From NCBI GenBank assembly GCA_009780015.1, contig WRAW01000001.1:14012-78011 (forward strand): DNA of 64,000 bases. The letters run 5' to 3'. Made by a program: the position numbers and the translations under genes. Below are positions 722 to 55,257 of the stretch, piece after piece (within the stretch, counting starts at the first letter, position 1; every line of letters begins with the position of its first letter). Below the pieces are notes generated by a model. That model did not search any database. It was not told where the DNA came from and saw nothing but the letters and a program-made list of their open reading frames with translations. The stretch comes from Defluviitaleaceae bacterium. GTDB taxonomy: Bacteria > Bacillota > Clostridia > Lachnospirales > WRAA01.

Positions 722-994
722 AGTTTAATCGTCCTCTGTAGTATTCTGAATTATTTACTATTCTAGCACATAACTCTTTTTTTCTCAACAATAAACTTTA
801 TTATTGCACAAAAATCAATTTTCATTGCAGGCTTGACCTGAAATCGCATCGGATATCCGCATACTCGGCCGTATTTCAGGCTAAAACCGGAATAGCGAAG
901 TGACGAAATTTGATTTCCGAATCAGCGCCGGTATTGACTTATTATGATAATATTGATATCATCTTTATGGATAATAACTGGAGGGGGAGCGGAC

Positions 995-1552
995 TTGTCG
1001 AATTTGTCGGAACAGGACGCGCTGCGACGTGCGGACAACAAGCTGATGATTCTGTACTTGCTCGACAAAATGGACATTCCCATGACAAACGCGCAGATCA
1101 CCGACTTTTTTGTATCGGAAAATCTGCTGACGTACTTCGAGCTGCAACAACTGCTGGCCAAAATGGTCGACGACGCATACCTGGAGAAGTATGTCGACAA
1201 TAATACAGCGCGCTACACCGTTACCGACCAGGGGGCGCAGACTCTGGAACTGCTTGGGAAGCGGATACTCCAGCCGGCGCGCTCGAAAATAAGCACCTTT
1301 GTCAGTGAAAACCGTAGGCTAATCAAGAAAGCTTATGAAATAACATCCAACTATTTCTACGACCACCAGACCGGCGAATTTATCGTGAAGTGCGGCGCGT
1401 ACGACGGCGACACAACCTTGATGGAGCTGGCTCTGTCGGTTGTAACACGCGAACAGGCCAAGCTCATATGCCGTAACTGGAAGGAAAACGTAAACAGGCT
1501 GTATGGAAAGTTCATGGACTTGCTTACGGACGAAAACGCCGAAGAATCTTAG
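995..1552 (+). CDS. DUF4364 family protein (putative PadR-like regulator)
   Basis: ORF 944..1552. NKLMILYLLDKMDIPMTNAQITDFFVSENLLTYFELQQLL is typical of DUF4364. The in-frame TTG at 995 follows GGAGGGGGA. A TTGACT-17-TATCAT promoter lies at about 924-952. Confidence 0.7.
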   Translation: MSNLSEQDALRRADNKLMILYLLDKMDIPMTNAQITDFFVSENLLTYFELQQLLAKMVDDAYLEKYVDNNTARYTVTDQGAQTLELLGKRILQPARSKISTFVSENRRLIKKAYEITSNYFYDHQTGEFIVKCGAYDGDTTLMELALSVVTREQAKLICRNWKENVNRLYGKFMDLLTDENAEES

Positions 1553-1555
1553 AGA

Positions 1556-1821
1556 CTGTTTAATACCTTTTTGCCGTTGGATTGGCAAGATCAGTTTTTC
1601 GCCATTTTAGGATGCTGTGTGCCAGTGGCACACGTTTAGCATCCGAAGCGCCAGCGTAGGCGGAGGAAGTGACGCCCGGGGTCCCCGCAAAGCCCGATTT
1701 TGGCTTTGTGGGGTGGACTGAGCGTACCCGTAGTGGTACGCAAGAAACTGACGACGACAAAGGGCGAAAAACCGGGGCCCCCGTGAAGCCCGGGTTTGAA
1801 TGGTAAAAAGGTATTAAACAG
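1556..1821 (-). repeat. family-1 nested palindromic structured repeat, copy A (long variant)
   Basis: Outer arms ctgtttaatacctttttgcc (1556-1575) and ggtaaaaaggtattaaacag (1802-1821) are complementary. The interior aligns to the reverse complement of copies at 16268, 55038 and to 7444 (gcgtaccc..ggtacgcaag, ctgacgacga, ggcgaaaaaccggggccccc). It starts 4 nt after the DUF4364 stop. Confidence 0.85.
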
Positions 1822-1839
1822 CCTCTTAGGAGCAAATAA

Positions 1840-3036
1840 ATGATATATACCAAGCTGCGGAGCCTTTACCCAAGGGGCGGTACACGCCGCGTTATTCTGA
1901 TGTTCGTGTTGATGAACGTGTTTGGGTTCTTTGCGCTTTCGGGCGCCAGAGGGTTTATCGTAGCATTTCTTGAGTATGTTGGGTATTCCGCCGGTGTTAT
2001 AGGCGCGTTCATATCGGTGATGGCGGCGTTTGGCATCGCCGGGCAGTTCGCCATCGGTTTCCTGTGTGACAAGTACGGGCGGATAAAGCCGTTCTACTTC
2101 CTGCTGATGACTATGGTGGTCGTGTCCGGGTTTGTGATATACTACGTAAGGCCGCCGATATGGATCATGTTCGCGGCGTTTGCCCTGCTTGGGGCGACCC
2201 TTGTCACCTGTATTCAGCTCGTGGACAGTTGGGTACTGGAGTCAGGCGATACGCTTAAACAAGCTTATGGGAAGGCTCGTGGAGCGGGCTCATTTGGCTG
2301 GGCCATCGGCCTGATAAGCTTGGGGCCGGTTATAGCTATTTTCGGTTTTTACGCGTTGCCGGTAATGTCCCTAATATTCACTCTGATTGCATTTTCAATA
2401 GCGATAAAGTTGCCCGACGCTAAGAAAACCAAGCACGGCAAAACAATCACCGTCAGGTCGCTAAAGGAGCTTTTCGCTAACTACCGCTATATACATCTGC
2501 TTCTGACGACATTCATGATATTCGGCGTGGTATCGGCGGAGTGGGTGCTGAACGGCATTAAGGCCGCCCAACTGGGTACGCCCGTGACATTTGGGATATT
2601 CTCCGGTACGATGGCCTTCGTCGAAGTTCCGTTTTTCGCTCTGTTTGGCCGTATACAGCGCCGGTTCAAGCTGACGCACATATTCGTATTCGGCGCGTCG
2701 GTTTACATAGTGCGTATAGCTCTCATGGGGCTTGCCCCAAGCATTGGCGTCATGACGCTCATCGGCATGACCAACGCTTTTGCCTACGCACCGTGCTATA
2801 TCAGCGCAAAATTCCTGCTTGACAAAGAGATACCGCAGCACTTAAAAACCACAGGACAGCTTATTGCCGCGGCCGTTTTCAGCGGACTTGCCGGAATAGT
2901 TTTCCCCGCGGCGATTGGGCTGGTCGCGGATGCCGTCGGGCTTACTAACGCATTCTTCATTTTGGCCGGCTTTGCGGTTGTTCCGTTTGCGCTGGCGTTG
3001 ATTTTCGCTAACATGAAGGATAAAGAGTTTGTCTAA
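1840..3036 (+). CDS. MFS transporter
   Basis: 398 aa with about 12 hydrophobic segments. The FLCDKYGRIKP loop between TM2 and TM3 is typical of MFS. Confidence 0.8.
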   Translation: MIYTKLRSLYPRGGTRRVILMFVLMNVFGFFALSGARGFIVAFLEYVGYSAGVIGAFISVMAAFGIAGQFAIGFLCDKYGRIKPFYFLLMTMVVVSGFVIYYVRPPIWIMFAAFALLGATLVTCIQLVDSWVLESGDTLKQAYGKARGAGSFGWAIGLISLGPVIAIFGFYALPVMSLIFTLIAFSIAIKLPDAKKTKHGKTITVRSLKELFANYRYIHLLLTTFMIFGVVSAEWVLNGIKAAQLGTPVTFGIFSGTMAFVEVPFFALFGRIQRRFKLTHIFVFGASVYIVRIALMGLAPSIGVMTLIGMTNAFAYAPCYISAKFLLDKEIPQHLKTTGQLIAAAVFSGLAGIVFPAAIGLVADAVGLTNAFFILAGFAVVPFALALIFANMKDKEFV

Positions 3037-3854
3037 TGCCCGTTCAATATCCTGTTAGCGCCGGATTTAATACTAAACAGGCTCTAAGGGCACGGAAAGG
3101 ATTGCTAGAATTGTTCAAAAGAGTTATAATTAAGGTAAGCGGAGAACAGCTTGCGGGAGGAAGCGACGTCGAACACTTCGACGGCGCGTTCATCAAGCGT
3201 ATTGTAACGGAAGTAGACCACGTCAGCAGACGCGGCTGTGAAGCCGGACTGGTGGTGGGCGGCGGAAACATCTGGCGCGGCCGCGACGCCAACCCGTCAA
3301 TGGACAAAGCCAAGGCCCACCACATGGGTATGCTGGCCACGGTCATCAACGCGATATACCTTGCCGACCAGTTCCGCGTTTACGCGGATCGCAAGGCCGT
3401 CGTAATGACGCCGTTTGACGTAAACGGCTTCACGGCGCGCTACAGTCAGGAGTCCGCAAACGAATGTATGAGAAGGGGTACAATACCGATATTCGCCGGA
3501 GGCAGCGGACACCCGTTCCTCTCCACAGATACAATCACCGCCATACGGGCCTGTGAGCTGCGCGTCGACGCCGTTCTCTACGGAAAAACTGTGTCCTCGG
3601 TTTACGATAAAGACCCGCGACGTCACCGCGACGCCCGCCGCCTCCGGTCGGTGTCCTACGAAACCGTACTGCGCGACAGCCTCGACGTGGCCGATATCGC
3701 GGCCCTTAGCATCACGCACGGCGCGAACCTGGCGTCGGTAGTCTTTGGCATAGCCATCGAGGGTTCAATACTGACAGCGTGTGAAGGCGTGGAGGGCTTG
3801 TTCAGAATCGGCGGCACATACATCGCGGACGACGCTCAGGATGTGTATTACTAA
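3036..3854 (+). CDS. pyrH: UMP kinase
   Basis: KRVIIKVSGEQLAG, VVGGGNIWRG, HMGMLATVINA and FLSTDTITAIRA motifs, and position upstream of frr. The start is uncertain: the ATG at 3036 gives a 26-aa N-terminal extension, and the in-frame TTG at 3111 would give the usual M-FKRV start. Confidence 0.85.
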   Translation: MPVQYPVSAGFNTKQALRARKGLLELFKRVIIKVSGEQLAGGSDVEHFDGAFIKRIVTEVDHVSRRGCEAGLVVGGGNIWRGRDANPSMDKAKAHHMGMLATVINAIYLADQFRVYADRKAVVMTPFDVNGFTARYSQESANECMRRGTIPIFAGGSGHPFLSTDTITAIRACELRVDAVLYGKTVSSVYDKDPRRHRDARRLRSVSYETVLRDSLDVADIAALSITHGANLASVVFGIAIEGSILTACEGVEGLFRIGGTYIADDAQDVYY

Positions 3855-6349: not shown

Positions 6350-7666
6350 ATGAAAAATATTGTGATACTTGGATCAACCGGTTCGATAGGGACTCAGGCG
6401 CTGGAGGTTGTTGACAGCCTTGGGGCGGAAGCCGGAATTTCGGCGCTTACCGCTAATAGCAGCGCAGACTTGCTCTACGATCAAATTGTGAAGTACAAAC
6501 CCAAGCTGGCCGTAGTTATGAATGCCGGGGCATATGACGAGCTTAGGAACAAGCTGCGCGCCGCCGGAATCGGCGTAAAGCTGGCGCACGGCATGGACGG
6601 GCTGCTTGAAGCGGCCTCCATGGACTGCGCCGACGTCTGCGTAAACGCGCTGGTGGGAAGCGTCGGACTGCTGCCGACCCTTGCGGCAATCGACGCCGGA
6701 ACCGACGTGGCGCTGGCAAACAAAGAAACCATCGTCACCGCCGGGGAGATTGTGATGGGTCGCGCACGCGCACGCGGCGTAAACATCGTGCCAATCGACA
6801 GCGAACATTCGGCAATATTCCAATGCCTGGCCGGAAATTCGGGCAACAGGATACACAGGATACTGCTTACGGCTTCAGGCGGGCCATTCCGAGGCATGAG
6901 TCCCGAACAGCTCAAATCCGTAACTATCGAGGACGCGCTTGCCCACCCGAATTGGGTAATGGGACGCAAGATAACGATTGACTCGGCGACTCTCATGAAC
7001 AAAGGTTTGGAAGTGATCGAAGCTCGATGGCTCTTCGACGTAGACCCCTCGCAGATTGAGGTCGTCGTTCACCCACAAAGCGTCATACACTCGATGGTCG
7101 AGTTTGAAGACGGTGCGATAATGGCGCAACTTGGCGAAAGTGATATGCGCGTCAGCATTGCTTACGCATTAACATACCCTCGCCGCGCGCGCTCCGATTT
7201 TAAGCGTCTGGATATATTCAGCCGCAGCCCTCTGACCTTCGAGCCGCCAGATACAACAGCTTTCCCATGCCTGGCTTATGCTTACGACGCGCTGAGAGCC
7301 GGCGGCACTGCGCCGGCCGTCCTTAACTCCGCCAACGAAGCCGCCGTTGAACTCTTTCTTAGCGGCAAAATTTCATTCACGGATATACCACGGCTTATAA
7401 ACGAGGCTGTTTCATCATATAATGTAAGGCGCGATGCTAAAAACCTGTATTCAATACCCGGAATGTTGGATTGGCGAGACGATTTTTCGCCAATTGAGGA
7501 AGTGATGACGCCGCGTACCAGTAGGGTACGCAAGGAAGAACTGACGATGAGTGGCGGAAAATCGACCGCCAAGACAGCGTTTCGGGTATTGAATGCAGGT
7601 TCTCATATCGACGAAATCTTACGGGCCGACGCCTGGGGAAGAAACTTTGTACACGAAAAGGGTTGA
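6350..7666 (+). CDS. dxr: 1-deoxy-D-xylulose-5-phosphate reductoisomerase carrying a 52-codon in-frame repeat insertion near the C-terminus
   Basis: ILGSTGSIGTQAL, ANKETIV, DSEHSAIFQC and HPNWVMGRKITIDSATLMNKGLEVIEA motifs. At 438 aa it is about 50 aa longer than usual. The extra segment coincides with repeat copy D (7444..7599). Confidence 0.95.
   Translation: MKNIVILGSTGSIGTQALEVVDSLGAEAGISALTANSSADLLYDQIVKYKPKLAVVMNAGAYDELRNKLRAAGIGVKLAHGMDGLLEAASMDCADVCVNALVGSVGLLPTLAAIDAGTDVALANKETIVTAGEIVMGRARARGVNIVPIDSEHSAIFQCLAGNSGNRIHRILLTASGGPFRGMSPEQLKSVTIEDALAHPNWVMGRKITIDSATLMNKGLEVIEARWLFDVDPSQIEVVVHPQSVIHSMVEFEDGAIMAQLGESDMRVSIAYALTYPRRARSDFKRLDIFSRSPLTFEPPDTTAFPCLAYAYDALRAGGTAPAVLNSANEAAVELFLSGKISFTDIPRLINEAVSSYNVRRDAKNLYSIPGMLDWRDDFSPIEEVMTPRTSRVRKEELTMSGGKSTAKTAFRVLNAGSHIDEILRADAWGRNFVHEKG
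7444..7599 (-). repeat. family-1 nested palindromic structured repeat, copy D (short variant) inside the dxr CDS
   Basis: Arms cctgtattcaatacccg (7444-7460) and cgggtattgaatgcagg (7583-7599) are complementary. The interior (ttggcgagacgatttttcgccaatt, gcgtaccagtagggtacgcaag, ctgacgatgagtggcggaaaatcg) aligns to the other copies. Length is 156 nt, a multiple of 3, with no stop in the dxr frame. Confidence 0.85.
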
Positions 7667-8830: not shown

Positions 8831-8870
8831 TTGTAATTAAAATACTTGACAAAGATTGGTTTATCGTATA

Positions 8871-8914
8871 TCATTGTATTATTGTACTATTAATATAGTA
8901 CAATAATACAATGA
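8871..8914. promoter_or_regulatory. 44-bp perfect palindrome, probable operator of the downstream YtrA-type GntR regulator
   Basis: tcattgtattattgtactat-taat-atagtacaataatacaatga: perfect 20-nt arms with a 4-nt spacer. It lies between a TTGACA box (8846-8851) and the GntR start at 8931. Confidence 0.75.
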
Positions 8915-8930
8915 TATGGGGTAATGTGCC

Positions 8931-15933: not shown

Positions 15934-16512
15934 ATGAGCATTAAGGAACGGGCAAAACAACTTAAAACGGATATCCCAGCCGTATTTTTCGCCCTGAAGC
16001 AGCAAGAAACGCCGCTACTTGCAAAATTATTAGCAGTGGTTGTGGTAGCGTATGCTCTTTCGCCGATTGACTTAATTCCAAACTTTATTCCCGTACTGGG
16101 GCTGCTGGACGATGTTATAATTTTGCCATGGCTTGTCGCGATTATTGTAAAGATGATCCCGCCTGACGTCATGGCACGATGCCGGGAGGAAGCCGCCGGG
16201 CTGTGGGCTGAAGGAAAGCCCAAAAAGTGGTACTATGCCCTGCCGATAATCGTGATTTGGCTTTTAGAACCAGCGGTCAATAACGCTCAACGCCGTCTAG
16301 AAGGTCGAACTCCACCCCACGAAGCCAGAAGCGGGCTTCGTGGGGGCCCCGGTTTTCCGCCACTCGTCGTCAGCGGCTCCTTGCGTACCGCTATGGGTAC
16401 GCGGCGTCGCCGCTTCCTAGATTGGCGGAAAATCGCCCTTCTAGCCAGCATTTCGGTTATTGACCGCTGGTTCTTAATTACTTTTGTCACGGCAAGAGCA
16501 ATTTGGTGGTAA
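15934..16512 (+). CDS. DUF1232/YkvA-family membrane protein whose 3' end runs into repeat copy B
   Basis: AYALSPIDLIPNFIPVLGLLDDVIILP is the DUF1232 core. After ...PIIVIWLL the ORF continues for about 80 codons through the repeat (16268..16472) to a stop at 16512. Confidence 0.6.
   Translation: MSIKERAKQLKTDIPAVFFALKQQETPLLAKLLAVVVVAYALSPIDLIPNFIPVLGLLDDVIILPWLVAIIVKMIPPDVMARCREEAAGLWAEGKPKKWYYALPIIVIWLLEPAVNNAQRRLEGRTPPHEARSGLRGGPGFPPLVVSGSLRTAMGTRRRRFLDWRKIALLASISVIDRWFLITFVTARAIWW
16268..16472 (+). repeat. family-1 nested palindromic structured repeat, copy B
   Basis: There is a perfect 17-bp outer stem, aaccagcggtcaataac / gttattgaccgctggtt. Nested inside are ctagaagg/ccttctag, ggttttccgcca/tggcggaaaatc, agcggc/gccgct and gcgtacc/gggtacgc. 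A side hairpin is ccccacgaagcc/ggcttcgtgggg. Confidence 0.9.
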
Positions 16513-16534
16513 ACATAAATATGAGGAGATACAT

Positions 16535-18670
16535 ATGAATATTTTGCAAGCGCTGACCAAGGAATTCAATATCAAGGAACATTATTTACAGGCCCTGATA
16601 GACCTCATCGACGAAGGCAATACTATTCCGTTTATCGCGCGGTACAGGAAGGAAGCCACGGGATCGCTTGACGACCAAGTGATCCGCGAGGTGGTTGACA
16701 GACTGACGTATCTGCGCAGCCTGCATGAGAAGCGGGAACAGTACCGCAATCTAATCGCCGAAATGGGTAAGATGACCGACGAGATAAACGCTGCGCTGGA
16801 CGCCGCCGAGACGCTGGTGGCTCTGGAGGATATCTACAGGCCGTACCGCCCAAAACGTCGCACACGCGCGACCATTGCCAAGGAAAAGGGACTGGAGCCG
16901 CTGGCTCTGCTGATATTCGGCCAGGAATTGGACGCGCCGCCGGAAGCCATCGCCGAAGAGTACGTAAGTGAGGAAAAGGGTGTCGCCACAGTTGAGGAAG
17001 CCCTAGCCGGCGCCATGGACATAATCGCCGAGATAATATCCGACGACGCGGGATACCGGGCAATGGTCAGGAAGATTTTCAACGACAAGGGGATGCTCAT
17101 TTGCAGGGCCGTAGACTCGACGAAGGAATCTGTATACGAAATGTACTACGACTTCCAAGAACCTGTTAAGAAGTGCGCAGGGCACAGAGTCTTGGCCGTA
17201 AACCGGGGTGAAAAGGAAGACTTCCTGAAAGTGGACGTCGAAGTTCCTGTGGACGATGTGCTGTACTCTCTTGGTAAGGCCATAAACAAAAAAAAGCCGC
17301 GTACTGAGCGGATAATCGCCGATACAATCGAGGATTCGTATAAAAGACTCATCGCCCCGTCAATAGAGCGCGAGGTCAGAAACGCCATGACAGAAACCTC
17401 CGAGGAGGGCGCGATCAAGGTGTTCGCCGAAAACCTGCGCCAGCTTTTGCTGCAGGCTCCTATTAAGGACAGGGTAGTGCTGGCGCTTGATCCCGGCTAT
17501 AGAACAGGCTGCAAAGCCTGCGTAATCGACGGCATCGGCAATGTTCTGTATACAGGAGTCGTATATCCGACGCCGCCCGCCAACAAGACCGCCGAAACCA
17601 AGAAAACCCTGCTGCCGCAAATACGCAAGCACAATGTTAACGTCGTGGCTATCGGAAACGGCACGGCCTCACGCGAGACGGAGGCGTTCGTGGCCGAAAT
17701 GCTCAAGGAAATTGAGGCTGAGATATTCTACGTTATTGTAAACGAGGCCGGGGCGTCGGTTTATTCCGCGTCGAAATTGGGCGCGGACGAGTTCCCCGAC
17801 TTTGACGTGGCGCTTCGATCCGCCGTGTCCATAGGCCGGCGCCTCCAGGATCCGCTGGCCGAGCTGGTCAAGATAGACCCCAAAAGCATCGGCGTGGGCC
17901 AGTACCAGCACGACATGAACCAGAAGCGACTTGGCGAGACTTTGGGCGGCGTAGTGGAAGGCTGCGTCAACAGCGTTGGCGTAGACCTGAATACGGCGTC
18001 ACCGTCTCTGTTGTCCTACGTGGCGGGTATTTCGCCGGCGGTTTCCAAGAATATACTGAAGCACCGCGAAACGCACGGCAAGTTCGCTAACCGCCGCGAA
18101 CTGTTGTCCGTAAAGGGGCTTGGCCCAAAGGCGTACGAGCAGTGCGCGGGCTTCTTGCGCATAATGGACGGCGACAACCCCCTGGACGCCACCGGAGTAC
18201 ATCCCGAAAGCTACGGCCCCGCGGCAAAGCTTCTTGGTCATATGGGGTACACAAACGCCGACATACAGCGCCGTACCGTGGGAGACATTAAGTCCAAGCT
18301 GAACAGCCTGCCGCGCCTGGCCGAAGAATTCGGCGTCGGACTGCCCACTCTGGAAGACATCATTAAGGAACTGGAAAAACCGGGCCGCGACCCGCGCGAA
18401 GACATGCCCGCGCCGATACTGCGCTCCGACGTGCTCTCCATGGAAGACCTGCAAGAAGGCATGAAACTAAAAGGCGTCGTGCGTAACATCGTTGACTTCG
18501 GAGCCTTCATAGACATAGGCGTACACCAGGACGGTCTTGTGCACATATCACAAATGACCGGCAAGTTCATCAAGCACCCTCTGGAAGTGGTGAGCGTAGG
18601 CGATATCGTGGACGTAACCGTACTAAGCGTGGACACCAACAAGAAAAGGATCAGCCTGACGATGAAGTAA
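16535..18670 (+). CDS. tex: Tex-like transcription accessory protein (S1 RNA-binding domain)
   Basis: IPFIARYRKEATG, a YqgF-like middle region, HhH, and a C-terminal S1 domain (GVVRNIVDFGAFIDIGVHQDGLVHIS). The ATG at 16535 follows GAGGAG. Confidence 0.9.
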   Translation: MNILQALTKEFNIKEHYLQALIDLIDEGNTIPFIARYRKEATGSLDDQVIREVVDRLTYLRSLHEKREQYRNLIAEMGKMTDEINAALDAAETLVALEDIYRPYRPKRRTRATIAKEKGLEPLALLIFGQELDAPPEAIAEEYVSEEKGVATVEEALAGAMDIIAEIISDDAGYRAMVRKIFNDKGMLICRAVDSTKESVYEMYYDFQEPVKKCAGHRVLAVNRGEKEDFLKVDVEVPVDDVLYSLGKAINKKKPRTERIIADTIEDSYKRLIAPSIEREVRNAMTETSEEGAIKVFAENLRQLLLQAPIKDRVVLALDPGYRTGCKACVIDGIGNVLYTGVVYPTPPANKTAETKKTLLPQIRKHNVNVVAIGNGTASRETEAFVAEMLKEIEAEIFYVIVNEAGASVYSASKLGADEFPDFDVALRSAVSIGRRLQDPLAELVKIDPKSIGVGQYQHDMNQKRLGETLGGVVEGCVNSVGVDLNTASPSLLSYVAGISPAVSKNILKHRETHGKFANRRELLSVKGLGPKAYEQCAGFLRIMDGDNPLDATGVHPESYGPAAKLLGHMGYTNADIQRRTVGDIKSKLNSLPRLAEEFGVGLPTLEDIIKELEKPGRDPREDMPAPILRSDVLSMEDLQEGMKLKGVVRNIVDFGAFIDIGVHQDGLVHISQMTGKFIKHPLEVVSVGDIVDVTVLSVDTNKKRISLTMK

Positions 18671-18689
18671 GCCGATCCTTGTATATAGG

Positions 18690-18742
18690 ACAGCCCACTA
18701 CTATAGTTAATACACTTTAATAGGCGATGGGCTGTTCTTTTT
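18690..18742 (+). terminator. possible terminator after tex
   Basis: acagccca ... tgggctgt with a long loop, followed by tcttttta. The weak geometry lowers confidence. Confidence 0.4.
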
Positions 18743-19919
18743 ATTCCGTATTATTTAACTCTTTGCTGATATATTCCAGAAGAGCGTTGGTATCGCTGAA
18801 AATTACCCCTCGCTGCGGTACATACAGTACCGATATGATTATAGAGCGTCCGTCTATCTCAGAATATGTAATCAGCGTATGCTGCGCGTCATTAGTAAAG
18901 CCTGTCTTGCCGCCCACTATCCATTCGTTGAAATCAGGATCGTCGTAGTGTATCATCCGATTGGTATTCCTCATGGGCCGGTAACTGTCACGGCTTTCGA
19001 TTGGCGGAAGGTACGCGCGGGGCGTGGCGATAATCTGATAATACACCGGATGCCGTACGGCTTCCCGCATAATCAGCGCCATATCGTATGACGTAGTGTA
19101 CTGATTTTCGCCGGGCAGGCCGCAAGGGTTCACAAAATGGGTATTCACGGCGCCCAGGGAATAAGCGCGGCGATTCATTTCATACACAAAATCCTCTACG
19201 CTACCGAACACGTGTTCCGCTAAAGCCCGAGCTGCCTCATTGCTCGAAGTCAGCATCAACGCATATAACGCGTCGATCACGGGAAGGGTATCCCCTGCCT
19301 GGATACTCATATGAAAGGCATACCCGGGCAGCGCCACCGAGTTATCCGAAAAAGTGACCGGCTCCGACAAATCCTCGATATTCTCCAATACCAGCAGAGC
19401 CGTCATGATCTTGGTTACGCTGGCCGGGTAACGCAGGGTATGCTGAGCGTCTTCATACAGCACATACCCCGTGTCCGCGTCCATGACCGTCACCGAACCG
19501 GCCATGTACATAGGCGCGCCCGGAGGCCGCACCGCCACAAAAGCAAGAAAATCCGAAGACATATAGCCATGAGCGCCGTTTATCTGCACTGAGTACCAGT
19601 CGCCGTCCCGAGTATCTGTCACTACCAGCAGAGTCCCTTGTGGCACCGTCTCGATGATTTCCGCTTCAGCCGAAGGTTCCGAGCGAAGCCGCAAGTTGTC
19701 GATAGTTCTGTAAACAGTCAGAGGTTCTTCCACGTCATTCTCGTCATCCGGCGTTACGTATGTATTCATCACAGGAACGGCATCCAAAGCCTGTACGTGT
19801 TCCACCAGCCTCAGAGGCGATTCCTGTTCAATATGTTCGCGCGGGCTTGCAGATGCAAAAGTCATGTAACCTGTTGCAATCACAATGCATACCATTATTA
19901 TCTTTCTTGATTTTTTCAT
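18741..19919 (-). CDS. D-alanyl-D-alanine carboxypeptidase (S11) with N-terminal SH3b-like domain
   Basis: Signal/anchor MKKSRKIIMVCIVIATG. The SH3-like segment is LRLRSEPSAEAEIIETVPQGTLLVVTDTRDGDWYSV. The SxxK motif is ASVTKIMTALLVLE. Confidence 0.85.
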   Translation of the reverse strand: MKKSRKIIMVCIVIATGYMTFASASPREHIEQESPLRLVEHVQALDAVPVMNTYVTPDDENDVEEPLTVYRTIDNLRLRSEPSAEAEIIETVPQGTLLVVTDTRDGDWYSVQINGAHGYMSSDFLAFVAVRPPGAPMYMAGSVTVMDADTGYVLYEDAQHTLRYPASVTKIMTALLVLENIEDLSEPVTFSDNSVALPGYAFHMSIQAGDTLPVIDALYALMLTSSNEAARALAEHVFGSVEDFVYEMNRRAYSLGAVNTHFVNPCGLPGENQYTTSYDMALIMREAVRHPVYYQIIATPRAYLPPIESRDSYRPMRNTNRMIHYDDPDFNEWIVGGKTGFTNDAQHTLITYSEIDGRSIIISVLYVPQRGVIFSDTNALLEYISKELNNTE

Positions 19920-25897: not shown

Positions 25898-28800
25898 TTG
25901 GAACTTTTTCTCAGCATACACATTAATGAGGTGATGAAATTGGATCATGATGCTAATCAGCTACCTATTGAAAACCGGCTTAGAGAAGCCGAGGCAAGAT
26001 TACGTGAGGCGGAGGAACTGAACGAAATATTCCTTAACTCACTGCCTCTTATAATGAATATATGGGATGAGAATTATAAACTTATATCTACCAGTCAGCA
26101 AGCGGTGGAGCTGTTCGGGCTTTCCAATCAGGAACTGTATATTGAAAGATTCTTTGAGCTTTCTCCCGAGTATCAGCCATGTGGTGAACGTTCGCAGGAA
26201 AAAGCCTTGTACTATGTTAAGCAAGCGTTTCGTGAAGGCCGTGTGAAGTTCGAGTGGATGCATCAAAACTTATATGGGGAAGAACTGCCCGCAGAAATCG
26301 TCCTTGTACGCTTTGCGCGTTATGGCAAATACTTTGTTGCGGCGTACATCTTTGATTTGCGTACTATTAAAAAAGTTATTGAGAATGAGCACGAAGCCAA
26401 TGAAATAAACAGAATATTCATTGACACGTCACCTTTTGCAATGGGTATGCGGGATGAAAATTACAATCCCATATACTGCAACAGTCAATTGCTGGAATTG
26501 TTTGGACTTTCAAGCTATGATGAATATCGTAAGCGCTTCTTTGAGCTTTGCCCCGAACGCCAGCCATGTGGAACCCCTTCGGATCAAAAAGCCCTTGAGC
26601 ATATGAAAATTGCCATGGAAAAAGGTCGCCACCGTTTCGAGTTCGTGCACTATACGGCGGACGGCAAGCTGCTGCCCACAGATATTACGCTGATACGTAT
26701 CAAGCGTCAGGGCAAGAATATGCTTGCGGGATATATTATCGATTTACGCCCTCTGAGGCAAGCGGAAGAGGAAAGCCGGATTCTCTTTGATTCCTGCCCT
26801 ATGTTCATAGAAGTCTGGGACGATGAGTTTAATTTAATTGGATGCAGCCAGAAGGTTGTAGACTTCTTCGGCCTTGCCAATAAGGAAGAGTATATAAGCC
26901 GGTACGGCGAACTTTCACCAAAGTACCAGCCATGCGGCACACTATCGGTCGAAAAGGCCGTAATCCTGGCACGGAAAACCTTTGAAGAGGGTTATGTCCG
27001 CGACGAGTGGGTACACATAGATCAAATTACCGGCGAATTGTTTCCCGTAGAAATAACCATGGTACGGATTAGGCGCGGCGGCAGAGACGTCGCTGTAGGA
27101 TACAATCATGATCTGCGCCCCATTAAGGACGTCCTGGCAAAAATGCGTGAAGCAAATTCAAAGGCTCGTGAAGCGGAAGAACTGAACAAGTTGATACTTG
27201 ACGCCAGCCCCATGTGTATCGAGATGTGGGACGACCGGCAAAATATGATTTATTGTAACAATAAAGCCTTGAACGCAGCTAATGTCAATAGTTTTGAGGA
27301 TTACAGGGATCGGTTTGCGGAACTTATGATTCCCTGCCGGACGGACGGAACACCCTCTGAAAACAAGCTGTCCGATTTGCTGGACGAAGCGGCGCGGGAG
27401 GGATCCGCACAGTTTGAATGGACCCATAGGGACAAAGATGGCGCTCAGGTAACTTACGAAACTCACTTAGCCCGCATTACGCGTAACGGCCGAAATGAGA
27501 TAGTAGGCTATAGCCACGACATCAGCGAAATTAAAAGAGCGATAGCCGAGATACGCGAAGCCGACGAACGTACTGCGCTTATGTTTGACGCCACTCCCCT
27601 CTCCTGTATTATGGCAAAGCGGGTCACCACTGAAAACGGCAGCATAAGGTTTGCCGCCGTCGACTGCAATCAAGCCGCGGTTGATTTGTTTGACTTTTCC
27701 GGCAAAGAGGAAACCATAGCCCGGTTTCTTGATATTTTTCTGAAACCATCGGAAGATGAATCGATTTTAGACATGGCTTTTGAGGACGCGGCAATTGCGT
27801 TTGATAATGGTTTTCACCAATTTGAGTTTACACACAGGAATGTACACGGTGAGTATATCCCATGTAAAATCACCATGGTACGGGTAAATTATAAGGGCGA
27901 ACCTATGCTGGCCTGCTATCAGCATGATTTACGCCAGATCAAGGCGGCTATGTCAAAAGAGCGTGAAAGCTTTGAGCTTACACAAATAATTCTTGACTCC
28001 GCGCCCTTTATAATCAATATTTGGGACGACAATTATAACATTGTAAGTACAAACAAACGAGCCTTTGAACTGTACGGGTTTTCAGAACAAGATAAATACA
28101 TTAATGATTTTTTTAGTTTTTCGCCTGAGTACCAGCCTTGCGGCACGTATTCAAGAGAAAAAGGGATTAATTATCTTAAAGAAGCTTATCAATCAGGCCG
28201 CGCGCAATTCGAATGGGTACACCAATCGCTGGACGGCAAGCTGTTCCCCACGGAAATCACCCTTGTGCGCTCTAAGCACAAGGACGCTACGATTCTTCTT
28301 GAATACACAACCGATTTACGCAGAGTTAAAGCGGCAGAAGACCTTACGCGAAAATTGCTTGACAACGCGCCGATGTTTATGAAATTCTGGGACGCGAAAG
28401 GTAATTTATTGGATTGTAACAAAAGATTTCTGGATATTTTCAAGATAAAGAACAAGGCCGAATTTACAAAACGATTCTATGAATTCTCAGCGGCATATCA
28501 GCCTTGCGGCACGTCGCCGGAGGAAAAGAACATCGCGCTGATTAATTATGTCATACAGCAAGGCAGTTACAGCGCCGAGTGGACATTTGTCCTACCGAGC
28601 GGGGAGGAACTGCCGGTGAACGCCACCTGGGTGCATATTGTGCATAACGGCGAATCAATGATCTTAGTATACAGCCATGATTTACGCCCAATTAAAGCGG
28701 CAATAAAAAGGGAACGGGAATTGGAAACGAAATTGCGCGAACAGGAAATGAACAGACGCATCGAGCTTATGTTTGACGCGGCGCCCCTTATAATTACGTA

Positions 28801-30913
28801 CTGGGATAAAAGTCATCAAGCCATTGACTGCAATCAGACCGCTCTTGACTTTTACGGATATTCCAATAAAAAGGAATATATGGGGGATATAGTTAATATT
28901 TCCACCGAATTTCAACCTGACGGATCTCCTTCGGTAGAAAGCCAGAAAAACCACTTGGATACAATTTTTGAGACAGGCTCCGACAGCTTTGAATATACCG
29001 GAAGAAAATCAAACGGTGATGTTGTTTTCTTGCAAGTGGAAGGCATACGCATAAAATATGACGATGAGTTTGTTGCGATCACGTATTCCAAAGACATCAC
29101 TCAACTGAGAGAGCTGCAGAGGGAACAGCAGCGCATTGAAATAGCCGAGGAAAGCAACAGAGCAAAGAGCAGATTTCTGGCAAGAATGAGCCATGAAATA
29201 CGTACGCCGATTACGGCGGTTTTGGGCATTTCAGAAATACAATTGCGGAATACGGCTCTGTCTCCTATTATTGAGGAATCTTTTGCAAAAATTTATAATT
29301 CGGCTAACATACTTCTTGACATTGTAAATGATATTTTAGACCTCTCCAAGATAGAGGCCGGTAAAATGTCCTTGCTGTGCGAAGAATATGAAACCTCAAG
29401 TTTGATTGTCGATGCCGTGCAGTGTCATATCGTGAACCTTGGATACAAAAATTTAGAGTTTCATGTACATGTGGACGAGAATCTTCCAAAACTGCTTGCA
29501 GGTGATTCTCTTCGCATTAAACAGGTTATAAACAATATATTGTCAAATGCTTTCAAATATACAAAGTCAGGTTCGGTGGAGCTATCCATGCACTGCCAAG
29601 AATATGCTTCTGAAGAAAGTTACGTGACGCTTGTGATTTCTATCCGCGACACAGGTCTGGGCATGACCCCGGATCAGATTGACAGATTATACAGCGACTA
29701 CACACGTTTCCATGAACACGAGGTACGTTCCGCAATAGGCACAGGCTTGGGTATGCCCATTGTTTATAATTTGCTGAAATTGATGGATGCGGACATCGAT
29801 ATAGAAAGCGAAGTAGGCGTAGGTACAAACGTAATAGTCCGTATACCTCAAAAAATAGTCGGCTCCGAAGTCTTGGGAAGGAAGTTGGCTGACAGCCTGC
29901 AAAACTTTGAAGTGAGCGCACAATCTGTTGAGAAAAAGTTTAAATTTGTGCCGGAACCGATGCCTTATGGGCGGGTGCTTGTGGTAGACGACGTGAGCGC
30001 GAACTTGTATGTAGCCCATGGATTGCTCTCGTTTTATAGCCTAAACATCGAAACTTGCGATAACGGATATGACGCGATAGAAAAAATTAAACAAGGCAGG
30101 GTATATGATATTGTATTTATGGATCAGATGATGCCCGGTATAAACGGTACTGAAACAATGCGCCTCATGCGTGATATTGGCTATACCGAGCCTATAGTTG
30201 CGCTTACGGCCAATGCCCTGATAGGCCAGGCGGAGGAATTTATAAGAAACGGTTTTGACGGCTTTATTTCAAAGCCTATTCAAACAGTGCACTTGAACAC
30301 AATTTTAACCAAGCATATACGGGACAAACAGCCGCCCGAGGTGCTTGAAGCGGCTATAAGCGGCAGCTTAGAGCATTCCGAAGGCATTGACAATTATCAA
30401 AACAATGCTGATGTGGTGGAAAAATTACGGTCGGATTTTGCCGCCAATCAGAAAAACGCGTTCCTGGAAATAAGTCAGGCCATAACGTCGGGAGATATTA
30501 AAACCGCTCACCGCCTGGCTCATACACTTAAAGGTTTAGCCGGGCTAGTACATGAATCAGACTTGGCGCAAGCCGCCGCGCATGTGGAATATATTCTGGA
30601 AAGCGGCGAAATACCGTCAAATGATAAGCTGTTTGCTTTAAAAAATGAACTGGCGCGCGTGCTCAATAATATTGGCAAGCCGGAAGCTATGATACTTTCC
30701 GGTAAGCTGGTTTTAGATGTGGATAAGGCTATATCGCTGCTCGATAGGTTAAAGCCCTTACTGGAACACCGAAAAGCTGAGTGTCTGAACTTGCTTGAGG
30801 AGCTTCGCACAATACCGGAAACGGCCATATTAGTCAGACAAATTGAGAAATTTGACTTTGCGTCGGCTCTAAAAAGTATGAATACATTAAGGGCTATACT
30901 GGAAGAACAATAA
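25898..30913 (+). CDS. giant hybrid sensor histidine kinase with 8 tandem PAS-like modules, HisKA-HATPase-REC-Hpt
   Basis: There are eight about 140-aa repeats ending in ..DLRxIK. The H-box is FLARMSHEIRTPITAVLG. The HATPase region is IRDTGLGM..GTGLGMPIV. The REC is VLVVDD..IVFMDQMMP and the Hpt is HTLKGLAGL. The start is uncertain (25898 TTG or ATG at 25934). Confidence 0.9.
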   Translation: MELFLSIHINEVMKLDHDANQLPIENRLREAEARLREAEELNEIFLNSLPLIMNIWDENYKLISTSQQAVELFGLSNQELYIERFFELSPEYQPCGERSQEKALYYVKQAFREGRVKFEWMHQNLYGEELPAEIVLVRFARYGKYFVAAYIFDLRTIKKVIENEHEANEINRIFIDTSPFAMGMRDENYNPIYCNSQLLELFGLSSYDEYRKRFFELCPERQPCGTPSDQKALEHMKIAMEKGRHRFEFVHYTADGKLLPTDITLIRIKRQGKNMLAGYIIDLRPLRQAEEESRILFDSCPMFIEVWDDEFNLIGCSQKVVDFFGLANKEEYISRYGELSPKYQPCGTLSVEKAVILARKTFEEGYVRDEWVHIDQITGELFPVEITMVRIRRGGRDVAVGYNHDLRPIKDVLAKMREANSKAREAEELNKLILDASPMCIEMWDDRQNMIYCNNKALNAANVNSFEDYRDRFAELMIPCRTDGTPSENKLSDLLDEAAREGSAQFEWTHRDKDGAQVTYETHLARITRNGRNEIVGYSHDISEIKRAIAEIREADERTALMFDATPLSCIMAKRVTTENGSIRFAAVDCNQAAVDLFDFSGKEETIARFLDIFLKPSEDESILDMAFEDAAIAFDNGFHQFEFTHRNVHGEYIPCKITMVRVNYKGEPMLACYQHDLRQIKAAMSKERESFELTQIILDSAPFIINIWDDNYNIVSTNKRAFELYGFSEQDKYINDFFSFSPEYQPCGTYSREKGINYLKEAYQSGRAQFEWVHQSLDGKLFPTEITLVRSKHKDATILLEYTTDLRRVKAAEDLTRKLLDNAPMFMKFWDAKGNLLDCNKRFLDIFKIKNKAEFTKRFYEFSAAYQPCGTSPEEKNIALINYVIQQGSYSAEWTFVLPSGEELPVNATWVHIVHNGESMILVYSHDLRPIKAAIKRERELETKLREQEMNRRIELMFDAAPLIITYWDKSHQAIDCNQTALDFYGYSNKKEYMGDIVNISTEFQPDGSPSVESQKNHLDTIFETGSDSFEYTGRKSNGDVVFLQVEGIRIKYDDEFVAITYSKDITQLRELQREQQRIEIAEESNRAKSRFLARMSHEIRTPITAVLGISEIQLRNTALSPIIEESFAKIYNSANILLDIVNDILDLSKIEAGKMSLLCEEYETSSLIVDAVQCHIVNLGYKNLEFHVHVDENLPKLLAGDSLRIKQVINNILSNAFKYTKSGSVELSMHCQEYASEESYVTLVISIRDTGLGMTPDQIDRLYSDYTRFHEHEVRSAIGTGLGMPIVYNLLKLMDADIDIESEVGVGTNVIVRIPQKIVGSEVLGRKLADSLQNFEVSAQSVEKKFKFVPEPMPYGRVLVVDDVSANLYVAHGLLSFYSLNIETCDNGYDAIEKIKQGRVYDIVFMDQMMPGINGTETMRLMRDIGYTEPIVALTANALIGQAEEFIRNGFDGFISKPIQTVHLNTILTKHIRDKQPPEVLEAAISGSLEHSEGIDNYQNNADVVEKLRSDFAANQKNAFLEISQAITSGDIKTAHRLAHTLKGLAGLVHESDLAQAAAHVEYILESGEIPSNDKLFALKNELARVLNNIGKPEAMILSGKLVLDVDKAISLLDRLKPLLEHRKAECLNLLEELRTIPETAILVRQIEKFDFASALKSMNTLRAILEEQ

Positions 30914-31008: not shown

Positions 31009-31134
31009 ATAGTGAAACAACTTAATTCAGGCCAATATTATCTCGGCGCTAAAGCGCCTCCTTTGTGGAACGTCGGCGGCAGTAGGCCGACGCTTCCAGA
31101 AAATATTGGTTCGCTTATTAAGTTGTTTCACTAT
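31009..31134 (+). repeat. family-2 structured repeat, copy 1 (complete)
   Basis: The 18-bp outer arms are atagtgaaacaacttaat / attaagttgtttcactat. Inside are ccaatatt/aatattgg and the hairpins ggcgc-taaa-gcgcc and cgtcggc-ggcagtag-gccgacg. A second copy is at 63255..63368. Confidence 0.85.
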
Positions 31135-31159
31135 AAAAAGAAATGTACGGAGGTAGCTT

Positions 31160-31723: not shown

Positions 31724-31745
31724 CAGCCCATATGAATTTTATAGC

Positions 31746-31796
31746 CAATAGATATTCAACAGTCCAAGTAAATTTTGGACTGTTGAATATCTATTG
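31746..31796. terminator. bidirectional 22-bp perfect hairpin between convergent genes
   Basis: caatagatattcaacagtccaa-gtaaatt-ttggactgttgaatatctattg. Confidence 0.7.
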
Positions 31797-31806
31797 ACTA
31801 TGTCGC

Positions 31807-38398: not shown

Positions 38399-38415
38399 TT
38401 GCGATTCCTCCTATA

Positions 38416-38512: not shown

Positions 38513-38533
38513 TGTATGCTTCACATGCAGAAA

Positions 38534-52573: not shown

Positions 52574-54126
52574 ACAACACTGTCTTCCTGGTCGGCGCAG
52601 GCCCCGGGGATTTCAAGCTTCTGACTCTCAAGGGATTGGAGTGCGTCCGTCAGGCGGACGTCATCATCTATGATGAACTGGTAAACACGCAATTCCTGCG
52701 CGAAGCCGGCGACGACTGTGAGCTTGTCTACGCCGGCAAATCATCCGGTTGTCACACATTACCCCAGGATCAGATACACGCGTTCATGATCGAAAAAGCC
52801 AAGCAGGGCAAGACCGTCGTGAGGCTGAAAGGCGGCGACCCTTACGTATTCGGGCGCGGCGGCGAAGAGGCTCAAGCCCTGCGTAAGAGCGGCATAGCAT
52901 TCGAGGTTGTGCCCGGCGTCAGTTCCGCCATAGGCGGGCCGGCGTATGCCGGAATACCCATAACGCACAGGGATTACGCCTCGTCCTTCCACGTAATAGC
53001 GGGTCACAGCAGGGTAGACGGCCAACACGCTAACGAGCCTGACTGGGACACGCTGGCCAAGCTTGACGGAACCCTCGTCTTCCTGATGGGGGTAGGCAAC
53101 CTGCGCAAGATTACTCAGTATCTGCTTGACGGGGGAAAACCCGCCGACACGCCCGCGGCGCTGATAAGCCGCGCTTGCGGCCCAAATCAGCGCGTAGTTA
53201 CGACAACCCTGGTACACGCATATGACGCGGCCACGGAAAACGACATCGGCCCACCGGCTATCATCGTGATCGGCGGCGTAGTCAGCCTGCGCGAAGAGCT
53301 AAACTTCTTCGAGCGCAAGCCCCTTTTCGGCAAGAGCGTAATATTAACGCGCGCAAAGGGTCAGAATGACCGCATGTCGCAAAAAATTTCAGATCTTGGC
53401 GGCGAAGCCATAGAAGCGCCGTCCATCAAAATAGTCACCATTCCCGGCAACCGCGCGCTGGAACTCGAAATAGCCCGTCTGAATTTATACAAATTCCTGA
53501 TATTTACGAGCCAGAACTCTGTCGACATATTCTTCGCCAAGCTGTATGAAATGGGGCTTGACGCGCGGTCGCTGGCAGGTACGCGGATAGCCGCCGTCGG
53601 CTCGCAAACGGCGCTGACGCTGTCAAAAAAAGGCATACGCGCCGACCTCGTTCCGCGCAGACACACCGCCGCAGGGCTGGTGCAGGAAATTTCGCTCCTG
53701 TTCGCTCCAATGGACAAGGTATTGATACCAAGAGCCGTGAACGCGCCGTTCGCTTTTTCAGACGCGCTGAACGCGGATATCACGGAAGTCGGAGTCTACG
53801 AGACCATACCAGACCACAGCAGCCGCGAACTTGCGCTAAGCCGCCTGCGCGAAGGCCGCGCCGACTATCTGACGTTTACAAGCCCATCATGCGTATCCGG
53901 CTTTGTCGCTCAGATCGGAGCTGAAAATCTGCCTCTCCTCGATCCGGTAAGAATCATCGCGATAGGCCCGGTCACAGGCTTGGCGGTTCAGTCCCACGGA
54001 CTGAGGCTGCACAGACAGGCGGCGCATCACAGCTCCGACGCCATTATCGAATGTATTAAGGAGGACGCACATTGTCAAGACGCCCCAGAAGACTCCGCAG
54101 AACCGACGCAATCCGAAGCCTTGTAA
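52570..54126 (+). CDS. uroporphyrinogen-III C-methyltransferase / uroporphyrinogen-III synthase fusion
   Basis: VFLVGAGPGDFKLLTLKG, RLKGGDPYVFGRGGEE and VPGVSSA are CobA/SUMT. The C-terminal half is HemD-like. Confidence 0.88.
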   Translation: MNNTVFLVGAGPGDFKLLTLKGLECVRQADVIIYDELVNTQFLREAGDDCELVYAGKSSGCHTLPQDQIHAFMIEKAKQGKTVVRLKGGDPYVFGRGGEEAQALRKSGIAFEVVPGVSSAIGGPAYAGIPITHRDYASSFHVIAGHSRVDGQHANEPDWDTLAKLDGTLVFLMGVGNLRKITQYLLDGGKPADTPAALISRACGPNQRVVTTTLVHAYDAATENDIGPPAIIVIGGVVSLREELNFFERKPLFGKSVILTRAKGQNDRMSQKISDLGGEAIEAPSIKIVTIPGNRALELEIARLNLYKFLIFTSQNSVDIFFAKLYEMGLDARSLAGTRIAAVGSQTALTLSKKGIRADLVPRRHTAAGLVQEISLLFAPMDKVLIPRAVNAPFAFSDALNADITEVGVYETIPDHSSRELALSRLREGRADYLTFTSPSCVSGFVAQIGAENLPLLDPVRIIAIGPVTGLAVQSHGLRLHRQAAHHSSDAIIECIKEDAHCQDAPEDSAEPTQSEAL

Positions 54127-55052
54127 GAGAAACCCGGCTGCACGTACAAGACCTCATATACCCCATGTTTATAGTGGAAGGCGAAGGCATACGGCGTGAA
54201 ATACCGTCTCTTCCCGATGTCTGTCAGTTCTCGCCGGACATGCTTGAGGAAGAAATCCGCGAAATCTGCTCCCTTGGACTGCGGCACGTCCTTCTCTTCG
54301 GAGCCCCTCACGCCAGCCGCAAGGACGAAGCCGGCACACCGGCCTTTAGCGAATACGGCGTGGTGCAGCAAGCCGTACGCGAGATCAAGAAGATCGCGCC
54401 CGATATCTGCGTGACGACCGACGTATGCATGTGCGGATATACAAACCATGGACATTGCGGACTCCTCGACGAGCAAGGCTGTGTGGACAACGACCTCACC
54501 CTTGGTCATCTGGCCGCGATTGCGCTGAGCCACGCCCAAGCCGGCGCCGACATCATAGCGCCGTCGGACATGATGGACGGCCGCGTCGCCCGCATACGCG
54601 ACGCCCTGGACAGCGGCGGCTACGACCATATTCCGATAATGGTGTACAGCGCCAAGTATGCCTCGAGCTTCTACGGCCCGTTCAGGCACGCTGCCAATTC
54701 CGCGCCGCAAACCGGAGACCGCAAAGGCTACCAGATGGACTTCGCCAACGCGAACGAAGCGCTGATAGAATGCGCCCTGGACGTACAGGAAGGCGCCGAC
54801 ATTCTTATGGTCAAGCCCGCTATGGCCTATCTTGACATAATAAGCCGCGTGAAGCAGCACTGCGGTCTGCCTCTGGCAGCCTACAGCGTCAGCGGCGAGT
54901 ACGCGATGTTAAAGTCTGCCATACAGCACGGCATCCTGTCGGAAGCCGCAGTCTACGAGACGATAATCGCAATCAAGCGCGCCGGAGCCGACATAATAAT
55001 CACATACTTCGCGAAAGACCTGGCAAAAATGCTTAGAGCCTGCGATCAATAA
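54072..55052 (+). CDS. hemB: porphobilinogen synthase
   Basis: RPRRLRRTDAIRSLVRETRL, DVCMCGYTNHGHCG (Zn Cys cluster), PSDMMDGR, YASSFYGPFR and MVKPA. The TTG start follows AGGAGG. The last codons and stop lie in repeat copy C. Confidence 0.93.
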   Translation: MSRRPRRLRRTDAIRSLVRETRLHVQDLIYPMFIVEGEGIRREIPSLPDVCQFSPDMLEEEIREICSLGLRHVLLFGAPHASRKDEAGTPAFSEYGVVQQAVREIKKIAPDICVTTDVCMCGYTNHGHCGLLDEQGCVDNDLTLGHLAAIALSHAQAGADIIAPSDMMDGRVARIRDALDSGGYDHIPIMVYSAKYASSFYGPFRHAANSAPQTGDRKGYQMDFANANEALIECALDVQEGADILMVKPAMAYLDIISRVKQHCGLPLAAYSVSGEYAMLKSAIQHGILSEAAVYETIIAIKRAGADIIITYFAKDLAKMLRACDQ

Positions 55053-55242
55053 TGCTCAACGCCGCCTGGAAGGCCGAGCTCCACACAACGAAGCCAAAAT
55101 CACGCTTCGTGGGAGCCCCGGTTTTCCGCCATTCATCGTTAGCAACTCCTTGTATAACGCTACGGGTATGCGGCGGAGACACTTTCTAAATTGGCGAAAA
55201 ATCGCCGCTTCTAGCTGATATTTCGGTTATTGACCACAGGTT
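55038..55242 (+). repeat. family-1 nested palindromic structured repeat, copy C
   Basis: It aligns along its whole length with copy B (gctcaacgccg, cgaagcc..gcttcgtggg, ccccggttttccgcca, attggcgaaaaatcgcc, cttctag, atttcggttattgacc). The left arm gcctgcgatcaataat overlaps the hemB 3' end. Confidence 0.85.
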
Positions 55243-55257
55243 CCGAAAGGACAACAC

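Follow-up and report, generated by a model that had tools for sequence, protein, structure and literature searches.

A probably IS5-derived MITE inserted in frame in dxr of a termite-gut Defluviitaleaceae bacterium is very probably tolerated as a loop of the enzyme

A 64,000-nucleotide stretch of a Defluviitaleaceae bacterium (contig WRAW01000001.1; the whole stretch is called the window here) carries dxr, the gene for 1-deoxy-D-xylulose-5-phosphate reductoisomerase, and this gene is interrupted by a palindromic segment that we call copy D. The insertion is confirmed to be real and lineage-specific, and the segment is a miniature inverted-repeat transposable element (MITE), as seen from its size, its terminal inverted repeats (TIRs), its target-site duplication (TSD), its copy number and its presence/absence polymorphism. 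In our judgement it is very probable that this MITE, derived from an IS5-family element, inserted in frame in dxr and is tolerated there as a loop of the protein. The gene product contains all three Dxr domains (PF02670, PF08436 and PF13288 in Pfam), matches solved DXR structures with E = 1e-102, and has an identical 438-aa counterpart in public data (P0001) that is labelled as coming from a “Defluviitaleaceae bacterium” metagenome-assembled genome (MAG). The gene order uppS-cdsA-dxr-rseP is the usual, conserved arrangement, in which rseP overlaps the end of dxr and starts 60 nt downstream of copy D.

A preliminary description of the window, made from the letters alone, had reported a structured repeat inside dxr between ...SSYNVRRDA and IDEILRADAWGR, with the frame kept and no stop codon, and had given its size as 156 nt or 52 codons. 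The location, the open frame and the flanks in the protein were borne out. The size has to be corrected, because the family termini and the TSDs place the borders of the element further out (Table 1), giving 162 nt and, with respect to insert-free orthologues, a net gain of 165 nt or 55 codons (K364-S418). Since the 162-nt element and its 3-bp TSD together make up 165 nt, the downstream frame of dxr is preserved; the dxr frame meets no stop codon across the element, and the end of the gene after the insert aligns with the I-x-G-I-L-Q-A-D-A-W-A-R of the orthologues.

The empty site is well represented among relatives. Each of the 17 orthologues that were aligned is without the segment, and so are the nearest among them (75-81% identical, 380-398 aa), which is the outcome that the preliminary description had expected when it proposed this check of lineage specificity; in the 18-sequence alignment the closest orthologues join SSYNVRH-xxD straight to the conserved C-terminal motif, and the extra block is unique to the window protein. 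The other 119 homologues among the matches listed are 373-425 aa long, with none near 438 aa. At the DNA level, the interval from AGGCAC to ATTGAC measures 9 nt in relatives and 174 nt in the window. Removal of 7441-7605 in silico restores a 383-aa Dxr (...RRDA-N-IDEIL...), in which the DXPR_C match is continuous over 1-114 of 115 profile positions (137.5 bits); with the insert in place it covers just 1-95 (126 bits).

Could the segment nevertheless have been placed inside dxr by a repeat-induced chimera during assembly? The family is multicopy and is frequently found at contig ends, and this would favor such an artefact, which the preliminary description had asked to be excluded. The gene is, however, 100% identical, both junctions included, in three assemblies (a 123-kb ENA/MEGAHIT k141 contig, a 12-kb Logan contig and a 5.6-kb JGI contig), which were made by independent assemblers, although their samples may not be independent, since the reads behind them could be shared or related. 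Moreover, copy D is effectively unique: its nearest sampled relative is 80.5% identical, and as no sampled copy comes closer, repeat collapse is implausible as its source. The presence of a TSD, an exactly kept frame and a correct C-terminus would likewise be unexpected for a chimera. We thus regard an assembly artefact as very unlikely.

The segment had also been described as a member of a repeated palindromic family, and this proved correct. Three further copies in the window (A, B and C; Table 1) are related to copy D at 74-82% identity, with no matches expected in shuffled sequence. A two-block search pattern built from the conserved core, which within the window picked up D, B and C and in shuffles nothing, was used to scan species-representative genomes and metagenomes, after which nhmmer was iterated on the loci retrieved. 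Among the species-representative genomes, BLAST-verified members occurred only in termite-gut MAGs, namely Defluviitaleaceae Co191P1bin81, Lab288P1bin14 and one Clostridiales MAG, and of the 95 stretches obtained by scanning metagenomes, almost every one came from a termite gut. The nhmmer search brought the total to 109 unique copies, 73 of which have at least 150 nt of flank, and nearly all of which lie in termite-gut Defluviitaleaceae/Clostridia DNA; copy D itself matches the profile with E = 4e-38.

The aligned family defines the element sharply. Its TIRs read GA/GG-CCTGT...ACAGG-YYC, with 5' ends of the forms GAGCCTGT, GAACCTGT and GGGCCTGT and the 3' end ACAGGYYC, and conservation falls to background in the AT-rich flanks beyond them. 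The modal length is 162 nt (16 of the 45 copies in which both ends are resolved), with composites reaching 207-274 nt, all under the ~500 bp expected of a prokaryotic MITE, and identical 3-bp direct flanks border 22 of these 45 copies (13 TTA, 8 TAA and 1 TGA). Open reading frames (ORFs) within the elements amount to just 48-77 aa and are homologous only to other copies, so that no transposase is encoded. Matches of the search pattern in Anaerolineae AQU-02, Acidobacteriota, Streptomyces and others were not BLAST-similar to the family and were set aside as chance matches or unrelated palindromes. In the Anaerolineae MAG AQU-02, six contigs (L008, L017, L020, L026, L028 and L029) were matched, five of them on both strands, by a multicopy palindrome that may be an independent repeat family sharing the TTTTCGCCAAT/ATTGGCGAAAA motif.

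With respect to the origin of the family, a candidate parent came to light in a JGI metagenome contig (Ga0082212, our L075). Positions 26-896 of this contig form an 871-bp unit with the structure TTA|GAACCTGTTTAGAATC...GATTCCAAACAGCTTC|TTA, whose ORFs match DUF4096 (PF13340, 1.2e-18) and DDE_Tnp_1 (PF01609, 4e-10); since both domains lie in a TTA-flanked unit, it is, judged by its sequence, an IS5-family insertion sequence (IS). It agrees with what characterizes that family, that is, DDE_Tnp_1 with an N-terminal DUF4096, a length of ~0.8-1.0 kb and a 3-bp TNA/TWA duplication. Of the first 24 nt at its end, 21 agree with the ends of the MITE, the TTA duplication is common to both, and the unit has a MITE copy as a neighbour at a distance of 27 nt. 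A comparable preference is documented for IS1237 (IS5 family, IS427/IS1031 type, ~899 bp), which recognises three nucleotides and duplicates TAA (PMC2516522). An IS of this kind is likely to be the parent of the MITE family, and its transposase would presumably mobilise the MITE in trans.

Other candidates for an autonomous element were rejected. A longer TIR-bounded unit (L086, 5416-6458) has no transposase-like ORF, and the TIR pairs that span 1552-3084, 16267-18941 and 52314-55243 of the window enclose ordinary genes; by tblastn, no transposase was found in the 64-kb window. In being small and without a transposase, in having TIRs and 3-bp TTA/TAA TSDs, and in occurring as many dispersed copies, the family resembles other IS5-derived prokaryotic MITEs. 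It differs from them in that the whole element, and not its ends alone, forms a hairpin kept by compensatory changes, and in that composites with nested hairpin modules exist. The assignment to an IS5 subgroup is tentative, and the family was compared with Rfam, where it had no match.

The hairpin is strong and extends over the full element. The fold of 7435-7610 has a predicted energy of -94 kcal/mol, as against -44.4 +/- 3.9 in 200 dinucleotide shuffles (z = -12.8), none of which was as stable. The complementary arms first described at 7444-7460 and 7583-7599 do exist, with 16 of 17 positions complementary and a single T-G exception, and are the outer part of this longer hairpin. Across 28 canonical copies RNAalifold predicts 61 pairs, 45 of them with compensatory double changes, and the 33 pairs of the outer helix are formed in 93.6% of cases. 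Overall 94.9% of cells are paired, compared with 74.8% when partners are shuffled and ~42% when partners are slid, and the covariation score is 0.56 compared with 0.18 and ~0.1, respectively; the observed values were reached in none of 500 shuffles. The full-length hairpin of the family is thus maintained by compensatory changes, and it may matter at the DNA level, in transposition, or at the RNA level. The invariance of the central helix is a matter of ascertainment, because the search pattern coincides with this helix, and we therefore did not read the core CGATTTTTCGCCAAT / GGCGGAAAATCG as a functional motif, given that it is identical to the pattern by which the copies were recruited.

Copy D is typical of the family in this respect: of the 61 consensus pairs, 53 are Watson-Crick pairs in it and 6 are wobbles, while 2 are unpaired. 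Its 80.5% identity to the nearest copy had suggested an old, heavily decayed insertion, a notion that we dropped since 59 of the 61 consensus pairs are kept; its low identity is better explained by a source subfamily that is not among the sampled copies. In most copies a T stands opposite a G at A5 columns 48/121 (23 of 28) and 25/144 (16 of 28), which correspond in copy D to 7488 with 7556 and to 7465 with 7578, and overall there are 72 T-G and 32 G-T cells. Such an asymmetry amounts to G-U wobble in one RNA orientation only and hints at an orientation-specific RNA structure.

These properties of the hairpin bear on the possibility that the insert has been co-opted, in the sense that the peptide gives Dxr a new property or that the hairpin in the mRNA regulates the translation, stability or processing of dxr-rseP. 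Such a function could perceivably take the form of a translational pause, of an RNase III-type processing or stability element tuning dxr/rseP, or of a disordered loop altering Dxr, and if true it would mean that a MITE has been domesticated inside a central metabolic gene. It would fit the compensatory changes in 45 of 61 family pairs and the excess of pairing over shuffles, as well as the fact that copy D keeps 59 of the 61 pairs in the sense orientation, in which T-G becomes G-U wobble, only a short distance before the overlapping rseP start. However, the conservation of the hairpin predates the insertion, and copy D need not share the selection behind it; the peptide is predicted to be disordered and is found in no other large protein; and with a single species bearing the insert there is no conservation to compare at the dxr locus. 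We consider co-option unlikely.

What the insertion does to the protein was approached by structure prediction, as the preliminary description had suggested. AlphaFold2, run on a 90-sequence alignment, returned a mean predicted local distance difference test (pLDDT) score of 88.1 and a predicted template modelling (pTM) score of 0.85, with 352 residues at or above 90 and values below 50 at residues 361-412; the means of 10-residue blocks are 60 at 411-420 and 94-95 at 421-438. The model superimposes on solved DXRs with target-normalised TM scores of 0.90-0.92, and the structure alignments of the window Dxr all stop near residue 358-374. The insert is accordingly predicted to be an unstructured surface excursion, modelled with low confidence, in the loop that leads to the final helix of the C-terminal helical domain, and the fold is otherwise unchanged; this agrees with the surface loop that had been proposed. 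The same loop is ~10 residues longer in one orthologue (P0013). Enzyme activity would be retained. Peptides predicted for the insert-bearing Dxr, tryptic and junction peptides included, are NLYSIPGMLDWR, DDFSPIEEVMTPR and VLNAGSHIDEILR, the first and last of which are the junction peptides.

A loop of this kind would not be present in mature Dxr if the segment were removed as an intron or a mini-intein, or skipped by ribosomal bypassing. The discrete and highly structured nature of the unit, in an important gene, could be taken to favor removal, and translational bypassing of mobile inserts does occur elsewhere, in T4 gene 60 and in the yeast mitochondrial byps. Yet each of these routes meets with difficulties. 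The element is a simple hairpin, at 162 nt shorter than typical self-splicing introns (~200 nt or more, with a catalytic core), and no Rfam family, intron families included, matched anywhere in the window at gathering thresholds. An intein is opposed by the length of the insert, 55 aa being too short for a Hint domain (at least ~130 aa), and by its junctions, which start with K-N-L and continue with H-I-D after the insert and thus lack nucleophiles; nor did a Pfam search of the dxr product reveal any domain within the insert. Finally, bypassing is unneeded in an open frame, and the family is otherwise ordinary intergenic DNA with TIRs and TSDs. Removal of the segment is in our view extremely unlikely.

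Taken together, we propose that a non-autonomous MITE, derived from an IS5-family DDE transposase element of the IS427/IS1031 type and probably mobilised in trans, would have entered a T-A-A site in the region of dxr that codes for the loop between the last two helices of the protein. Insertion would have duplicated the 3-bp target and so kept the frame, in an orientation and phase that happened to be free of stop codons. The resulting allele would then owe its survival to the fact that the 55 added residues make up an excursion that is tolerated and probably disordered, and that does not disturb the NADPH-binding, catalytic or C-terminal helical domain.

Several points weigh against this proposal, in addition to the reads that the three assemblies may have in common. 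The right TSD of copy D reads TCA and differs by one mismatch from TAA. The source subfamily of copy D is not among the sampled copies, the nearest of which stands at 80.5%. The transposase of the candidate parent lies outside the window, is divided between two ORFs that a gap separates and is possibly decayed. Transcription and translation of the insert as part of Dxr are most likely, but inferred. Pairwise dN/dS ratios (nonsynonymous to synonymous substitution rates) are 0.07-0.11 against insert-free orthologues and ~0.09 among those orthologues, but dS is saturated (1-2), so that these ratios say little on selection since the insertion. Lastly, the 64 kb examined are only a part of the genome, and a second dxr or a mevalonate pathway is possible elsewhere in it.

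The last two points lead to the alternative that this dxr copy has been inactivated and is an early pseudogene or dispensable, its isoprenoid precursors being supplied by a second dxr, a DXR-like (DRL) enzyme or the mevalonate pathway. Such a fate would be conceivable for a gene whose insert, with 20 residues of the protein still to follow, breaks up the C-terminal helical domain, and a recent relaxation would be hidden by the saturated dS. On the other hand, the 438-codon ORF is intact and in the correct frame, the last helix is conserved, there are no other lesions, and the conserved gene context, the low dN/dS ratios and the confidently predicted fold all speak against it. Inactivation is thus improbable, and the in-frame MITE tolerated as a loop of Dxr is the explanation with which we continue.

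Other copies of the family are in contact with genes as well. Three of the ~73 flanked copies (~4%), all of them exactly 162 nt long, lie in frame within plausible genes. Besides dxr, these are a gene of the PD-(D/E)XK type (PDDEXK_2, PF12784; L112), where the copy is flanked by TTA/TTA and the Pfam match, 53-189 of 229 with the copy in place, reaches 53-224 once it is excised, and, as a less certain case, a gene for an Rce1-like membrane protein (L030), where the copy falls outside the Pfam domain. Read in different frames or orientations by its three host genes, the element gives three different peptides. Copies in the window alter gene ends as well. A DUF1232 gene (15934..16512, with the Pfam domain at residues 30-66) continues across the whole of copy B and ends 36 nt past it, and its product owes to the copy an 83-aa C-terminal tail; the TAG stop (1550-1552) of a DUF4364 gene (944..1552) consists of the TA of the TSD and the first G of copy A; and the final five codons (RACDQ) and the stop of hemB (54072..55052) are supplied by copy C. 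In the Defluviitaleaceae MAG Co191P1bin81, two copies stand head-to-tail, ~45 nt apart (L009 2337-2705, the same as L048 7672-8045 and in opposite orientation L079 4606-4979), directly upstream of a relA/spoT-like ORF, with one of the copies stop-free in the frame of that ORF.

The idea that the element is coding-compatible by design, as in Rickettsia palindromic elements (RPEs), was rejected: stop codons are barely depleted, with 1.55 of 6 frames stop-free per copy compared with 1.20 in dinucleotide shuffles, and of 45 copies just 19 are of a length that keeps the frame. A phmmer search among 1.84 billion representative proteins found the 55-aa peptide in no other large protein; its matches were the 48-77-aa ORFs of intergenic copies and two unrelated tandem-repeat proteins, in which weak matches were summed over the repeats. 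With open frames, frame-keeping lengths and further hosts all being few, the in-gene copies are best seen as survivors of a filter, that is, their length of 162 nt and their freedom from stops reflect survivorship and are no design feature of the element. A filter of this kind suffices, as 162 nt plus a 3-bp TSD are frame-neutral and about one quarter of frames are stop-free.

The resemblance to RPEs noted in the preliminary description therefore holds for the outcome and not beyond it. RPEs are palindromic repeats of ~100-150 bp that lie in frame within unrelated housekeeping genes and add a peptide at positions judged to suit the fold (PMC10969869), and here, too, a housekeeping enzyme has gained an in-frame peptide where it is tolerated. 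In contrast, only 3 of ~73 copies are in genes, whereas nearly half of RPEs are reported in ORFs; no consistent coding frame exists, with three hosts giving three peptides; and TIRs and TSDs are clear in this family, for which there is also a credible IS partner. The comparison was one of described properties. Common descent with RPEs is implausible because the host is a Defluviitaleaceae (Clostridia) MAG and hence belongs to a different phylum.

Closer parallels are offered by the QMITE1 and QMITE2 elements of Coxiella burnetii and by intragenic enterobacterial repetitive intergenic consensus (ERIC) sequences, which are known to cause in-frame internal insertions, C-terminal extensions and new stops (PMC5896051, PMC10969869). 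The same three outcomes are seen with copies D, B, A and C, although sequences, hosts and transposase families are unrelated. Whereas the mid-ORF in-frame cases cited for Coxiella concern hypothetical proteins (PMC5896051), the host protein here is a well-characterised enzyme of the methylerythritol phosphate (MEP) pathway. In-frame insertion of MITEs is thus already known from other bacteria, and the dxr case, well resolved as it is, will not surprise specialists and does not constitute a new kind of system.

Its interest lies rather in that a transposon-derived hairpin sits within a core metabolic enzyme, apparently without destroying Dxr, and that its borders, TSD, empty sites and a candidate parent IS could be identified. 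With this case a phenomenon that is known above all from Rickettsia is extended to Clostridia of the termite gut that are uncultured, and it concerns a target of antibiotics and antimalarials, one loop of which is predicted to tolerate an insertion of 55 residues. It also carries a warning for annotation, since a housekeeping protein of unusually great length in a MAG may contain a MITE.

Table 1. Positions in the window of dxr, copy D with its borders, and the other members of the family
Feature	Position	Strand	Remarks
dxr ORF	6350..7666	+	438 aa including insert
Left TSD copy of D, TAA	7438..7440	+	family-wide T-W-A direct flanks
MITE copy D, 162 nt, full-length imperfect palindrome	7441..7602	+	borders from family termini and TSDs
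TIR-L of copy D, AAACCTGTATTCAATA	7441-7456		
TIR-R of copy D, TATTGAATGCAGGTTC	7587-7602		
Right TSD copy of D, TCA	7603..7605	+	degenerate, one mismatch to TAA
Last 19 dxr codons after insert, IDEILRADAWGRNFVHEKG	7606..7663	+	part of C-terminal helix; frame kept
Copy A, 274 nt	1552..1825	+	composite with two extra internal modules; TSD TTA (1549-1551) / TTA (1826-1828)
Copy B, 207 nt	16267..16473	-	nested ~44-nt GC-rich hairpin; TSD TTA (16264-16266) / TTA (16474-16476)
Copy C, 208 nt	55036..55243	-	same composite subfamily as B; left flank TTA (55033-55035), right flank CGA
Solo terminal repeat, AATACTAAACAGGCTC then TAA	3069..3084	+	directly after MFS (major facilitator superfamily) transporter gene (1840..3036), which it brackets with copy A

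The composite copies share a nested GC-rich hairpin of ~44 nt, GGGCCCCCACGAAGCC...GGCTTCGTGGGGTGGAG, which occupies the equal internal position in A, B and C (1676-1717, 16311-16352 and 55080-55121), and in copy A another module, of ~67 nt, is present at 1605-1672. The nested modules may represent a second small element inside the MITE, or else define a composite subfamily. The solo terminal repeat listed in Table 1 is probably the remnant of another copy.

Other repeats in the window are separate from this family. An unrelated 99-nt repeat occurs at 31037-31135 and 63271-63369 (91% identical) and contains short GC-rich hairpins (GGCGCTAAAGCGCC; GACGTCGGCGGCAGTAGGCCGACGC), and a tandem repeat with an 84-nt unit is present in ~2.4 copies at 50516-50713 (90-93% identity). 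Three other strong local palindromes lie at 8861-8924, 31741-31801 and 38412-38516, with arms of 30 nt (90%), 27 nt (96%) and 41 nt (78%), respectively; the first of these, with its 90% complementarity, is a possible operator, as it stands just upstream of the gene at 8931, which is of the GntR family. Finally, short direct-repeat families (D4-D6, D11 and D18), spaced by ~750-1200 nt across ~26000-28900, suggest a tandem array of paralogous genes.

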